Positions 40,996-45,761 of a stretch of DNA of 64,000 nucleotides are shown here, piece after piece. Both the position numbers and the translations under genes were made by a program. The stretch comes from Candidatus Falkowbacteria bacterium (GTDB lineage: Bacteria > Patescibacteriota > Patescibacteriia > CAIXNZ01): positions 21,913 through 85,912 of the forward strand of contig JAFGMD010000021.1 in NCBI GenBank assembly GCA_016927685.1, written 5' to 3'. The first letter of the stretch is position 1, and every line of letters starts with the position of its first letter. The notes under the pieces are model-generated. The model was not told the DNA's origin and ran no database searches. It saw only the letters and a list, made by a program, of their open reading frames with translations.

Positions 40996-42183
40996 ATGCA
41001 AAAATTAAATATTATAATGTTTAACATGTCCAAATACAGCGATTGGCAAAAAGGAATTGCCAATCGTAATTATCATATTTTGCATAATTTAGTTAAGCAT
41101 GAGGAAATAAACAAAGTTATTGCTGTAGATTTTCTACCTTTTAACTGGAAAAGGGCAATTAAAACTTTTATTTATGATCAAATTATTAAAGATACTAGGG
41201 GCAAGATAATTTTTGGCGATTTAACTTCTAGATGCTGGCAAATCTCCAGCAAAATATTAGTTTATTCAACCATTGATTCTATGTTGAATAAAGAAAGGAT
41301 TATTTCGGAATTAAAAAGGATTATAGATAAAGAGGGGATGAACAGTAATTTAATTGTCTGGAATTATAATCCTATGTTTGTTGATTATTTTAATCAATTT
41401 GGCCAAAAGCTTAATATTTTTGATACAGTAGATAATTGGCTAGAACATTCAAGTTATGAAACATACAAAAAGGTTCTGCAGAAAAATTATAATTTAATTA
41501 AAGATGGCAGTGATTTAATTTTTACTGTTTCAGAAAATTTAAAACAAAGCTTATTTAGTAACCAAGAAAATACATATTGGATCCCTAATGCAGTAGATTT
41601 AGAATATTTTCAAAGCCAAACAAATATTTCAGAAAAATTAAAAAATATTCCCAAACCAATAATTGGTTTTTTAGGTATCTTACAAGATAGAATTGATGAT
41701 GAAATCTTGCTATATTTAGCTAAAAAAAATCCAGACAAATCACTGGTTTTAGCTGGACCTATCTGGAAAAACTTTCCTAAGAAAAAATTTGAAGGACTAA
41801 AAAATGTCTATTTTTTGGGGCAAATAAATCATTTAGAAATACCATCGCTTTATAATGGTTTTGATGTGGGCATTATTCCTTATAAAATCAATGCCTTTAT
41901 CAAATCCACTGACCCCATGAAATATTATGAATATATAGCCGCTAATTTGCCAGTTGTTTCAACTCCAGCGCCAGGCATTGATCGCTTTGGGAATTTAATT
42001 TCCATTGCTAATAATCTTGAAGATTTTAATGATTTTGTTAATCAAGCGATTAAAGGGGGGAAAGAAAAAAAGAAAGATGAAAGAATTAAGATTCTTCATG
42101 GAAATACTTGGAATGATAGAATCGAACAGATGCTTAAATTGGTAAACGCAAAACTCAACCCCCATAGTCATTCCGAGCGTTAG
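40996..42183 (+). CDS. glycosyltransferase (GT-B fold, group 1-like); the C-terminal 6 codons and the stop are supplied by an inserted TIR element
   Basis: The GT-B C-terminal region (GILQDRIDDE...LAGPIW...GFDVGIIPYK). The tail ...PHSHSER* is encoded by the left arm of the GIY-YIG element. Confidence 0.6.
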   Translation: MQKLNIIMFNMSKYSDWQKGIANRNYHILHNLVKHEEINKVIAVDFLPFNWKRAIKTFIYDQIIKDTRGKIIFGDLTSRCWQISSKILVYSTIDSMLNKERIISELKRIIDKEGMNSNLIVWNYNPMFVDYFNQFGQKLNIFDTVDNWLEHSSYETYKKVLQKNYNLIKDGSDLIFTVSENLKQSLFSNQENTYWIPNAVDLEYFQSQTNISEKLKNIPKPIIGFLGILQDRIDDEILLYLAKKNPDKSLVLAGPIWKNFPKKKFEGLKNVYFLGQINHLEIPSLYNGFDVGIIPYKINAFIKSTDPMKYYEYIAANLPVVSTPAPGIDRFGNLISIANNLEDFNDFVNQAIKGGKEKKKDERIKILHGNTWNDRIEQMLKLVNAKLNPHSHSER

Positions 42184-42575
42184 CGAGGAATCCAAAACAT
42201 CTGATATATGAAACAATATTGCGTTTATATAATGACCAACAAAATCGACTCAGTTGACTATACTGGAATAACAAATGATTTATTTAGAAGAGTCTATGAG
42301 CACAAAACTCATTTTAATGAAAAAAGTTTTACCTCAAAGTATAATATAAATAAATTAGTATATTTTGAAGAATATAATAATCCCAAGCAAGCCATTAACC
42401 GAGAGAAGCAAATCAAGGGCTTGAGTCGGGAAAAGAAATTTAATCTAATTAAAACAATAAATCCTAATTTTAATGACTTAGCAAGGGATTGGTATAAAGA
42501 TAACCAGGCCGAGCATAAGGAACAACCGACTTAACCTAGGTTATAGATTCCACGCTGCGCTCTGAATGACAGTTG
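42163..42575. mobile_element. TIR-bounded element carrying a GIY-YIG nuclease gene (putative autonomous member of the MITE family seen at 44967-45050)
   Basis: The left arm gtcattccgagcgttagcgaggaatcc (42167-42193) and the right arm ggttatagattccacgctgcgctctgaatgacag (42539-42572) are about 80% identical to the two arms of the 84-bp MITE. The GIY-YIG ORF replaces the central loop of the MITE. Confidence 0.55.
42208..42534 (+). CDS. GIY-YIG nuclease family protein (COG2827-like)
   Basis: 108 aa; CVYIMTN...DYTGITNDLFRRVYEHK...FTSKY...LVYFEEY...REKQIKG matches the GIY-YIG core and is paralogous to the 6093..6338 protein. Confidence 0.8.
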   Translation: MKQYCVYIMTNKIDSVDYTGITNDLFRRVYEHKTHFNEKSFTSKYNINKLVYFEEYNNPKQAINREKQIKGLSREKKFNLIKTINPNFNDLARDWYKDNQAEHKEQPT

Positions 42576-43468: not shown

Positions 43469-43477
43469 AATAAAAAG

Positions 43478-44200
43478 CCCCACATTTTATGTGAGGCTGT
43501 AAATTCGCCGGTGAGGAGGTTGCTTGGCATCCAGATTACTCTGGACGAGCATAGAGTTCTCTTGGTGCTTGCCGAAGTGGACCCGAGAATCTATCCTCGC
43601 TTTGATATCCGAGTACTTTTCTATCGCAAGCCCTGACAAATTTCCCTGGACATCTCTGGCGGCATCGAAGTCCAGACACATACCGTGCATTTCTACGTTC
43701 GTCAACGTAGTTGAGCGTAGCCATTTGGCCTTGTAAAACCCCTGCACTAATACATGCCCAGAAAGCCACCCTCTCTCCTCCTCGATCTGTAATAAACATT
43801 AACAAACGAATAAAATAATGTCAAATAAAAAGCCCCACATTGCTGCAGGGCTGAATTTACAAATGATTGGAAGGGTTAGAACAGCATTGCTGAACAACAA
43901 TGCCGACGGCGACCAAATGGGTCTGCTCCTAACCTGACGTTTTTATAATGGCTCGGTCAGCGCCCTTTGTCCATCCAACCATTTACCTGATGGCAAGTCG
44001 TGGGAGAGGAAAGGCTTTGGAAAGAAAAGGCAGTTATTGCCCTTGCGTATTTCAACGCAAATTTCCTTCTTTTCTGCCCAGATGCTCTTGCCAGCTTACT
44101 AGGCAGTATTCCCACTTCAGGATTTGAATAATGATGATCGCTACCAAGGACAAAGCCCATGGGAGTGATGCTAATAAAATATCAAATGGATCAGTTTTTG
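43478..44200. other. GC-rich (about 48%) segment with no credible ORF; contains two terminator-like hairpins sharing the head aaaaagccccacatt
   Basis: Only short overlapping ORFs in several frames (43487..43747-, 43524..43736+, 43536..43805-, 43957..44160-) with implausible composition. aaaaagccccacattttatgtgaggct at 43475 and aaaaagccccacattgctgcagggct at 43831. Confidence 0.4.
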
Positions 44201-44207
44201 TCAACAT

Positions 44208-45761
44208 ATGAATATTCTCAAAAAAAATAAAATTCTCACCGTATTTTTACTGATTTTTTTAGTGGAAATGTTATCACTAATCAGTTTTAAAATTGCCTGG
44301 CTTTCGGGCTTATTTTTTGTTCTGATTTGTACTGGAGTATTTTTAATTACTTGGAAAAAATTAGAATATGGGATATATGTCGTTTTAACAGAATTAATAA
44401 TTGGATCGCAGGGGTATTTATTTTATCTGGTTTTACCTGGATTTAAAGCATCAATTCGCTTGGGAATTTTTCTAATTGTCTTTTTTGTCTGGCTGATAAA
44501 ATATTTGAAACCCAGGATTTTTCTCAATTTATTGAAAAGAGATGCACTTGTTCAAAATTTTATCTTGCTTTTAATTTTTGTCGCCTTCGGAACGATTAAT
44601 GGAATAATAAATAAAAATGGTTTGACTAATGTCTTTTTTGATGTAAATGGCTATTTGTATTTCGGTTTATTTTTCGCTTTTCTTGAAGTATTCAAATCAA
44701 TTGAGCAAATTAAAAAATTTTTAAAAATATTTATTGGCGCCATGATATATGAATGCACTAAGGTATTTTTAACTCTCTATTTATTTTCCCATGATTATTT
44801 CATTAATGCCTCTGATTTATTTTATCACTGGATTCGCGATACCCGAGTAGGGGAGATAACTTATGCCGGAGGCAATTTTTTTAGAATATTTTTTCAGTCG
44901 CAAATTTGGGCTTTGATAGGAATTTTTATTATTATTTGTTTAATAATTTGGGTGATGCAAAAAAAACCGCTCTGTCATCCAGAGCGTAGCGAAGGATCTA
45001 AGACATTGGGGGTTATAGATTCCTCACATTCGTTCGGAATGACAGAGCGGGTTTGGCTTTTTTTGCTGTTAACTATAATCCAAACATCAATTATAATTTC
45101 CTTTTCCCGCAGTTTCTGGGTTGGTGCTATAGCTGCTTTTATAATTTTACTTGGTTATCTAGTCTTTATTTATAAACCAGGATTTAAGATAATAAGCAAA
45201 ATAATTGGTATTTCTGCCAGCTCATTAATTTTAAGTATTTTTTTGGTTATTTTTATTGCCAATTTCCCCATTCCCAAACCATCATCAGAATTATCAGCGC
45301 AGTTAATCGGCGCCAGATTTTTATCCTTTTTTGGCGAAGCAGGAGTTTCTAGCCGTTGGAATGAATTGCCGTCGCTCCTGGAAAAAATAAAACAAAGCCC
45401 CGTATTTGGTTCTGGCCATGGCACAACCATAACTTTTAAATCTGAAGATCCTAGAATTAAAAATGAGCAAAACCCCGAGGGTTGGTATACAACTTATACT
45501 TTTGAATGGGGCTATTTAGACACGCTTATAGAGATAGGAATTCTAGGTTTGCTGGTATGTCTGGTATTTATCGGTCAAATCGCTTATATGGGCCTTAAAA
45601 CGCTTAAAAACAAGGAATATGGCCTGATTTCAGCCGGTTTACTGCTTGGCCTAGTTGCCATGTTAGTCACCCATATGTTTAGCCCTTATTTGAATCATCC
45701 CCTGGGAATAGGATATCTAATGCTGTGCGCCAGCATCTTTAAATCAAAGCCGTCAGATTAA
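44208..45761 (+). CDS. O-antigen ligase / Wzy-like polysaccharide polymerase family membrane protein, with an in-frame MITE insertion
   Basis: A multi-TM protein with a Wzy_C-like block (SFSRSFWVGAIAAFIILLGYLVF) and a large loop. Codons for ...KKPLCHPERSEGSKTLGVIDSSHSFGMTERVWLF... are contributed by the 84-bp palindromic element. Confidence 0.5.
   Translation: MNILKKNKILTVFLLIFLVEMLSLISFKIAWLSGLFFVLICTGVFLITWKKLEYGIYVVLTELIIGSQGYLFYLVLPGFKASIRLGIFLIVFFVWLIKYLKPRIFLNLLKRDALVQNFILLLIFVAFGTINGIINKNGLTNVFFDVNGYLYFGLFFAFLEVFKSIEQIKKFLKIFIGAMIYECTKVFLTLYLFSHDYFINASDLFYHWIRDTRVGEITYAGGNFFRIFFQSQIWALIGIFIIICLIIWVMQKKPLCHPERSEGSKTLGVIDSSHSFGMTERVWLFLLLTIIQTSIIISFSRSFWVGAIAAFIILLGYLVFIYKPGFKIISKIIGISASSLILSIFLVIFIANFPIPKPSSELSAQLIGARFLSFFGEAGVSSRWNELPSLLEKIKQSPVFGSGHGTTITFKSEDPRIKNEQNPEGWYTTYTFEWGYLDTLIEIGILGLLVCLVFIGQIAYMGLKTLKNKEYGLISAGLLLGLVAMLVTHMFSPYLNHPLGIGYLMLCASIFKSKPSD
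44967..45050. mobile_element. 84-bp MITE-like palindromic element with 12-bp perfect terminal inverted repeats
   Basis: ccgctctgtcat...atgacagagcgg. The arms (ccgctctgtcatccagagcgtagcgaaggatctaagacatt and ttatagattcctcacattcgttcggaatgacagagcgg) are joined by ggggg. It is in-frame inside the Wzy-like ORF. Confidence 0.6.

Follow-up and report, generated by a model that had tools for sequence, protein, structure and literature searches.

The subject of this work is a small nuclease gene and the hairpin repeats that bracket it in a 64,000-nucleotide stretch of a Candidatus Falkowbacteria genome (contig JAFGMD010000021.1, positions 21,913 to 85,912; the window below, numbered from its first letter). 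The locus is most probably an Ssn/SRM cassette, that is, a gene for an Ssn-family nuclease together with its cognate SRM hairpins, the basic activity being predicted from that of homologs. The Ssn family was described by Chenal et al. (2025, Nat Commun 16:2388; PMC11893778) as a group of GIY-YIG proteins with a single domain (cd10448, GIY-YIG_unchar_3). Hairpin repeats lie on the flanks of their genes; the general name for these repeats is SRM, and those of Neisseria (CGTCATTCCCGCGMAVGCGGGAATCYRG) are known as NTS (PMC11893778). SsnA was shown to bind and cut single-stranded DNA (ssDNA) only, on one strand only and a few nucleotides 5' of the tag of the repeat; no characterized homolog cut double-stranded DNA (dsDNA), no interaction of SsnA with RNA was seen, and the loss of ssnA led to a roughly five-fold higher transformation with NTS-bearing DNA (PMC11893778). 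The first-pass annotation of the window, made from the letters alone, had proposed a possibly uncharacterized class of selfish element. However, this gene-plus-repeat layout had already been published as Ssn/SRM, and the same authors had likened NTS-ssnA-NTS to an insertion sequence (IS), drawn the analogy with repetitive extragenic palindromes (REPs) and their REP-associated tyrosine transposases (RAYTs), and proposed a domestication (PMC11893778). What we report is an independent rediscovery of a system published in March 2025 that opens no new class, but it extends the occurrence of Ssn cassettes to Candidatus Falkowbacteria, a lineage of the candidate phyla radiation (CPR).

To locate the repeats, the core GTCATTCNGARCG was searched on both strands of the window with at most 1 mismatch, and the count was compared with that obtained in shuffled sequences. 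Four copies were found, at 42167 (+), 42570 (-), 44974 (+), and 45043 (-), against 0.18 expected, and none of the 100 shuffles reached four. The first two copies form an inverted bracket around a 108-aa GIY-YIG open reading frame (ORF; 42208-42534, plus strand), and the last two are the two halves of an 84-bp palindrome (44967-45050). The arms, their coordinates, the ORF, and the palindrome were thus as first described; in our hand alignment, the two left arms are ~78% identical and the two right arms ~77%. The left arm is GTCATTCCGAGCGTTAGCGAGGAATCC (42167-42193). The right arm occupies 42539-42572 and reads on the minus strand as GTCATTCAGAGCGCAGCGTGGAATC from 42570, then TATAACC. This 7-nt tail is common to the right unit of the ssn cassette and the right unit of the 84-bp pair, and the 13-mer GGTTATAGATTCC occurs exactly only at 42539 and 45011, in the right-hand units of both pairs.

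The left SRM-type hairpin unit (42166-42193, plus strand) is supported by its sequence, its core match, its fold, and an architecture like that of the units in 80 homologous loci (see below). It carries the tag (A)GTC at 42167-42169, a stem in which ATTCC (42170-42174) is paired with GGAAT (42187-42191), and a tail C at 42192; inside the stem, a GA/GA internal loop is followed by an inner GC/GC stem and a GTTA loop. As the first-pass annotation had observed, the upstream GT1-family glycosyltransferase gene (40996-42183, plus strand; ORF and domain match) ends inside this unit, which supplies its last codons (...HSHSER*) and its TAG stop (42181-42183). The right SRM-type unit (42539-42571, minus strand) is inverted and is supported by its core match and by an orthologous unit in a related contig; its stem is slightly degenerate, with one mismatch. 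In the 84-bp inverted pair, recognized by its sequence, its fold, and its orthologs, the tags face outward (CCGCTCT-GTCAT ... ATGAC-AGAGCGG). Its two units, both identified by the core match, are GTCATCCAGAGCGTAGCGAAGGATC on the left (44974-44998, plus strand) and, on the right (45018-45043), minus-strand GTCATTCCGAACGAATGTGAGGAATC with the TATAACC tail. When folded as ssDNA, the 84-nt pair gave a strong structure (-20.8 kcal/mol, z -5.5), and the left unit of the cassette adopted the predicted shape weakly (-3.7 kcal/mol, z -2.1). When the window was scanned for additional units under strict structural criteria, 3 matches were obtained vs 1-8 in shuffled sequences, which is not above background.

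The product of the bracketed gene was assigned to the ssn type on the basis of Pfam, BLASTP, hhalign, and an AlphaFold2 (AF2) model. It matches the Pfam GIY-YIG domain PF01541 over the full length of the domain (residues 3-79, E 5e-14) and has no other domain; searches of NCBIfam, PHROGs, and PADLOC with the window protein gave zero matches. As the SsnA reference, we used the ortholog encoded in the PLSDB record NZ_CP119140.1 (L083), labelled as a gonococcal plasmid and actually a 2.17-Mb chromosome; this ortholog of 94 aa retains Y6, Y17, and E64, and its gene is flanked by NTS copies on both sides. Homology between the two proteins was found over the full length, with 39% identity over 92 aa by BLASTP (E 3e-23). 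A tblastn search of the window protein against the N. gonorrhoeae ssnA locus gave 7e-14, where the cut-off of the Ssn paper was E < 1e-10, and a comparison of the family profile with gonococcal SsnA by hhalign gave a probability of 99.7%. The SsnA residues Y6, Y17, and E64, which were mutated in the Ssn paper, align with Y7, Y18, and E66 of the window protein; Y18 and E66 do not vary among 17 homologs, and at least 90% of these homologs keep Y7. The AF2 model (pLDDT 90.3) shows one compact domain with the GIY-YIG fold and a short disordered tail. Its nearest solved folds are UPF0213 BH0048 (1zg2), then Slx1 and the UvrC N-terminal domain. No homing endonuclease, the group with which the first-pass annotation had suggested a comparison, appears among the sequence matches or among the fold matches listed. 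A second record in the plasmid collection, NZ_CP119142.1, resembles NZ_CP119140.1: both carry the label of a Neisseria gonorrhoeae plasmid, have a length of 2.17 Mb, are nearly unannotated, and look like chromosomes.

The arms had been taken for ordinary terminal inverted repeats, but each of them is a self-folding hairpin with a covarying stem, a 5' GTC tag, and a 3' C. The consensus of the unit is Y-GTC-[A Y N N N]-GA-[inner stem and loop]-GA(A)-[N N N R T]-C-T-C, in which GTC and GA were fixed by the search pattern, while the flanking positions and the 3' half were not selected on. The exact reverse complement of a core's own 5-nt stem was found within 79 nt in 336 of the 423 cores examined, compared with 34/423 when the stem of another unit was used, and more than 20 stem variants are present among these 423 cores. 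In a subset of 131 units picked blind to the three variable stem positions, all three were paired in 115 units vs 27.7 +/- 4.1 after partner shuffling. Nine positions are stacked in the structure: five base pairs in the stem, two G·A pairs, and two base pairs in the inner stem; a loop of 3-4 nt closes it and a CTC or CTA tail follows. The inner part, often GC-GNA-GC, can also be a longer hairpin, which covaries as well. A C lies directly 3' of the stem in 97% of the units, and at position -1 T is found in 65% and C in 24% (Y in 89%), neither position having been selected on; conservation ends two nucleotides 5' of GTC. The stem opens with A in 92% and T in 89% of the units (positions 1 and 2), the search pattern having restricted these positions to A/G and T/C. 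In the published work, the C after the palindrome was critical for SsnA binding and the three nucleotides before the palindrome for cleavage (PMC11893778). The near-invariant C after the stem, the pyrimidine at -1, and the conserved GTC tag agree with these binding and cleavage determinants.

No Rfam family covering the units was found, either in a gathering search of the whole window and 20 loci or in an E-value search of the region and 11 Bacteroidota loci, and no family of the name "COG2827 RNA motif" appeared in any of these Rfam searches. One locus, from Chryseobacterium (L025), carries a Flavo-1 RNA (RF01705, 59.8 bits) at 1295-1370 on the minus strand, 1.6 kb upstream of the nuclease gene. 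This RNA holds GAUUGCAAUGAC and GCGAAGC, strings that are also found in repeat units, possibly by coincidence.

The association of units and gene is recurrent. A protein search returned 3,898 relatives with 50-70% identity in many phyla, besides a protein listed under Candidatus Falkowbacteria with 100% identity, and we analyzed 80 genomic loci encoding relatives from Chloroflexota, Bacteroidota, Cyanobacteriota, Planctomycetota, Patescibacteria, Pseudomonadota, and others. In these loci, the 13-mer core (at most 2 mismatches) was tightly clustered at the ends of the nuclease gene, and with a degenerate core a unit was found at most 150 bp from the gene in 73 of the 80. The bracket seen in the window, with a plus-strand unit upstream and a minus-strand unit downstream, was present in 43/80 loci, so that the juxtaposition is not unique and the expectation that such genes would be recurrently bracketed by these arms was borne out across many phyla. 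The density of units was 9.1 per kb beside the gene, 0.51 elsewhere in the loci, and 0.15 in shuffled sequence, which corresponds to an 18-fold enrichment near the gene. Where a unit was detected on both sides (56 loci), the nearest units on each side were outward-facing in 33. These flanking frequencies are similar to those published for the Ssn/SRM system, with at least one SRM in 71% of homolog regions and SRMs on both sides in 42% (PMC11893778). In 8/80 loci, the stop of the nuclease ORF is the TGA of AATGAC in the downstream unit.

In the reverse test, 120 metagenome loci were seeded with the window-type unit. They contained 404 units in 651 kb, and an Ssn homolog was encoded in only one of them, where the gene was bracketed by units; the units are therefore far more numerous than the gene. 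Outward-facing inverted pairs represented 67 of the 115 adjacent pairs in these loci, with a median span of 84 nt. The commonest dispersed form of the repeat is the geometry of the cassette minus the gene. This fits structurally the picture proposed at first, in which the short element is the gene-less form of the longer one, although it does not demonstrate mobilization. Tandem arrays of units with a period of ~80-180 nt were also seen beside or near the nuclease gene in six loci (L078, L066, L065, L064, L022, and L063); they resemble bacterial interspersed mosaic elements (BIMEs), the clustered arrays formed by REPs.

Several observations weigh against the assignment of the locus to the Ssn/SRM system. 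The window protein is just 39% identical to tested Ssn enzymes, and its predicted activity rests on homologs, between which specificity varies (PMC11893778). The role of Ssn outside Neisseria is still to be elucidated according to the authors themselves (PMC11893778). The right unit of the cassette is partly degenerate and folds weakly when taken alone (z -0.3). The orientation also differs, as the units found here are mostly outward-facing, whereas the NTS around gonococcal ssnA face inward, with the tag beside the gene on both sides (L083, 1380-1890). Finally, the published SRM string, HGTCWYN(0-2)YYVSBRHN(0-5)WNVSBRGN(0-2)RNCYNB, matches none of the four window arms and has a match at most 200 bp from the gene in 1/80 loci, although it does match the NTS consensus. 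The string misses the units because they have a tandem G·A internal loop where the NTS has C-G pairs. As the units have the tag, a stem starting with AT, and the C on the 3' side, all of which were shown to matter biochemically, we class the locus with the Ssn/SRM system, its hairpins being a subtype outside the published pattern. A large clade of Ssn genes, present in Chloroflexota, Bacteroidota, Cyanobacteriota, and other phyla, goes together with G·A-loop hairpins that the published string misses, and some of the 29% of Ssn homolog regions reported to have no repeat could be accounted for by this type.

A mechanism can be proposed by analogy with the characterized homologs, the SsnA proteins of N. 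meningitidis, N. elongata, N. wadsworthii, and Wolbachia. The enzyme would bind the folded hairpin only in ssDNA and only on the strand that reads GTCAT..., and once bound it would cut a few nucleotides 5' of the tag. At the cassette, the predicted cuts would fall on the top strand just left of ~42167 and on the bottom strand just right of ~42570, both outside the cassette, and the same geometry would be expected at the two ends of the 84-bp pair. If the cut is placed 3 nt before the equivalent of the NTS start, as deduced from oligonucleotide truncations (PMC11893778), it would lie only a few nucleotides from either end of the 84-bp insert. Repeats would be retained beside the gene and scattered genome-wide, mostly as outward-facing pairs. 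The role of the system is most likely, as in Neisseria, the processing of ssDNA at SRM sites in uptake, recombination, or replication. With sites on opposite strands and a hydrolytic enzyme, the excision and rejoining used by IS200/IS605-type elements would be unavailable, and any copying would need host replication or repair. Our literature search found no follow-up on the mobility of Ssn and nothing relevant joining GIY-YIG proteins with REPs, RAYTs, or miniature inverted-repeat transposable elements (MITEs), and the repeat sequence searched as text gave primers only.

To gain insight into the history of the cassette, the window was compared with four syntenic contigs from relatives (L081, L085, L086, and L087), each with an operon encoding a flippase, GT4, GT1, and GT2 glycosyltransferases, and a Wzy protein. 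In the window, the cassette sits between GT1 and GT2 of this glycosylation operon. In the closest relative, L081, where the neighboring proteins are 77-84% identical, GT2 follows GT1 after 27 bp and the nuclease gene is absent; L085 and L086 (61-78% identical) are likewise without the nuclease gene at the syntenic locus. L087, with neighbors 61-74% identical, encodes an Ssn protein that is 70% identical to the window protein at the same position of the operon. The junctions of the window and L087 were compared by eye and through translation. The left junction is the same in both, AAAACT(C)AACCCC(C)ATAGTCATTC, and the right unit and the right flank are recognizably alike. In L087, the glycosyltransferase stop is the TAG of aTAGtcat (2880-2905), whereas in the window (42155-42183) an additional C changes the reading frame, from which the HSHSER* tail of the glycosyltransferase results. 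L081 was considered as an empty site predating the insertion, and this was dropped, as L087, which is no closer than L085 and L086, has the cassette with the same junctions. The gene-less state of L081 is therefore better read as a loss. The simplest reading of these sequences is that of one old insertion, inherited vertically and later lost in some relatives, rather than a recent hop. No target-site duplication was seen at the ends of the cassette or of the 84-bp insert when the relatives' junctions were inspected for one, as the first-pass annotation had advised. On longer time scales, relocation has taken place, as is seen from an Ssn homolog 68% identical to the window protein (P0009) in an unrelated context, on a Parcubacteria contig (L088, 1866-3306), where its gene lies directly after a tyrosine-integrase gene and before genes for proteins resembling pilins of type IV secretion systems (T4SS). 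This homolog may be located inside an integrative element.

The 84-bp pair is itself an insert in a coding sequence. It corresponds to 28 codons in frame in a loop of the Wzy_C/O-antigen-ligase-like ORF 44208-45761. Compared with the closest ortholog, in L081, where the insert is absent, CCGCTCTGTCAT...ATGACAGAGCGG of the window replaces nine bases, a net gain of 25 codons that keeps the frame. A related insert is found in the same loop of the more distant orthologs P0124-P0128 (PLCHPE.SEGS...FGMTE) and of those in L085 (6773) and L086 (6782). The 5' flank of the insert, CCGCTCTGTCATCC, is common to the window and L086, and its counterpart in L085 is CACTTTGTCATCC. The insert is absent from P0122, P0130, P0132, P0135, and P0140 and from the orthologs in L087 and L081, and a different loop sequence (RRSD...SSV..KK) is shared by P0130, P0135, and L087. 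Either one old insertion has been lost several times or this loop is a hot spot for insertion. Vertical persistence, occasional loss, and an in-frame pair in a membrane protein all bear on the question of whether the repeats are mobilized by Ssn or are mere substrates of it.

The first-pass annotation had favored a mobile element, and a selfish replicator comparable to a REP doublet forming a hairpin (REPIN) with its RAYT has to be weighed against ssDNA processing. SRM-ssn-SRM would then be the autonomous form and the outward-facing pairs, such as the 84-bp element, its non-autonomous derivatives; Ssn would cut at the two outer ends where single strands are exposed, leaving it to the replication or repair machinery of the host to make and insert the copies. 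The outward geometry shared by the gene cassette (33/56 loci) and the dispersed pairs (67/115, median 84 nt) argues for this, as do the excess of units over genes (ssn in 1/120 unit-seeded loci), the extra 7-nt tail common to the right units of cassette and pair, the closeness of the predicted cuts to the ends of the 84-bp insert (a few nucleotides), and the 68% identical Ssn in an unrelated context beside an integrase. The units also resemble the CGTC/TGTC-tagged REPs of Di Nocera et al. (2013, BMC Genomics 14:522; PMC3733652), which "apparently lack a dedicated transposase" (PMC3733652). However, GIY-YIG nucleases hydrolyze DNA and are not known to rejoin it, and with flanking sites on opposite strands a single-strand excision of the IS200/IS605 type cannot work. 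No target-site duplication was seen and no transposition event has been reported (PMC11893778), the cassette has been fixed at one operon position over deep divergence, and the Wzy insert is common to distant orthologs. We therefore regard the selfish replicator as rather doubtful. The same degree of doubt applies to the broader conjecture that Ssn is the missing mobilizing enzyme of the CGTC/TGTC-tagged REP superfamily (dRS3, RPE-4, RPE-6), in which Ssn and SRM would propagate themselves and the outward-facing pairs, those in frame in genes included, would be non-autonomous copies made in the way just outlined.

Three other explanations are considerably less probable than these. The abundance of gene-less outward-facing pairs, and the position of the gene exactly between two such units, could point to a homing-type origin, in which a free-standing GIY-YIG gene entered the spacer of an existing SRM pair and spreads by cutting gene-less pairs. 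The window protein, however, does not have the DNA-binding domain typical of homing GIY-YIG enzymes, its fold comes nearest to UPF0213, Slx1, and UvrC and the matches listed include no homing endonuclease, the characterized homologs do not cut dsDNA (PMC11893778), and the cassette is single and stable in the operon, all of which makes this origin very unlikely. Nor do we expect, except with slight probability, that the hairpins act mainly at the RNA level as terminators, mRNA stabilizers, or regulators of the nuclease gene, with a regulatory link to the nuclease. The units are stable hairpins in the untranslated regions on either side of the gene (5' and 3'), which would be consistent with such a role, and many REPs have been suggested to be transcribed (PMC3733652), but SsnA does not interact with RNA (PMC11893778), Rfam gave no match, T-runs are absent from the units, and the units occur in both orientations and inside coding sequence. 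As for a chance juxtaposition of two independent repeat fragments beside an unrelated small gene, a single cassette is visible in the 64-kb window and its right arm is imperfect, but a bracket in 43/80 loci across phyla, an 18-fold enrichment near the gene, and an orthologous cassette with the same junctions in L087 refute it, and we give it practically no credence. ssDNA processing by an Ssn nuclease at its cognate SRM hairpins thus stays our preferred reading.

Apart from these features, the spacer between the GT2 and Wzy-like genes (43469-44207) has a GC content of 0.42-0.50, compared with ~0.30 around it, and contains no convincing ORF. It holds two terminator-like hairpins (AAAAAGCCCCACA...), and its second half is partly conserved with the corresponding spacer of L081. 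A search of this spacer against Rfam gave no match. One or two RNAs or small proteins could be encoded there on the minus strand.

Comparison with known systems places the cassette closest to Ssn/SRM. Both have a single-domain GIY-YIG protein of ~94-108 aa with full-length homology and conserved catalytic residues, inverted hairpins on either side of the gene with a (C/T)GTC tag, an AT stem start, and a C after the stem, and dispersed repeats that outnumber the gene. They differ in the host, Candidatus Falkowbacteria here (the word Patescibacteria is not in the main text of the paper; PMC11893778), and in the hairpin: where the published repeat has an 8-bp stem, ATTCCCGC, the units found here combine a stem of 5 bp with a tandem G·A internal loop and an inner stem that varies. 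The UPF0213 proteins (YhbQ-like; 1zg2, 1ywl) and Slx1 share the GIY-YIG fold and are the nearest solved structures, but the similarity is weak (profile E 3e-8 and 5e-5, Foldseek E 1.9e-4). Slx1 has an extra domain and acts with Slx4 on branched DNA. The GIY-YIG homing endonucleases of the I-TevI and Seg type have a nuclease domain joined to a separate DNA-binding domain and cut their cognate site in dsDNA, whereas the window protein is single-domain. Classical ISs and MITEs are also different, as no target-site duplication was seen here and the sole gene encodes a hydrolytic nuclease, not a transposase able to rejoin DNA. The 84-bp pair is reminiscent of the Rickettsia palindromic elements (RPEs), which are likewise palindromic repeats of a multiple of three nucleotides, in frame in a protein gene and tolerated in a surface loop; the host differs, and there is a single case in this window. 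The first description of RPEs, by Ogata et al. in 2000, reportedly dates from a time when no link to an enzyme was known.

The likeness to the REP/REPIN-RAYT systems is one of organization, with a usually single-copy gene flanked by inverted hairpins, the same repeats dispersed as inverted pairs, an enzyme that recognizes an ssDNA hairpin, and a long vertical persistence. The enzyme, however, is a hydrolytic GIY-YIG nuclease here and an IS200/IS605-type HUH Y1 tyrosine transposase with a covalent intermediate there, and the tag is GTC rather than GTAG. The CGTC-tagged REPs have CGTC or TGTC as the tag and stems that begin with A-T pairs, are mostly inverted dimers, some of them inside genes, and include Neisseria dRS3 and Rickettsia RPE-4 and RPE-6 (PMC3733652). 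The unpaired CGTC/TGTC tag, the A-T stem start, a short unpaired tail, the organization in inverted dimers, the intragenic location of some copies, and the spread over many phyla are all found again in the units described here. The hairpins of the CGTC-tagged REPs have an 8-9 bp stem, a loop of 4-5 nt, and a CCA-like tail, compared with the 5-bp stem, G·A loop, inner stem, and CTC/CTA tail of our units. The name Nocera occurs nowhere in the text or reference list of the Ssn paper (PMC11893778). The present analysis ties the Ssn repeats to this superfamily, described in 2013 as being without a dedicated enzyme; the units described here bracket an Ssn gene.

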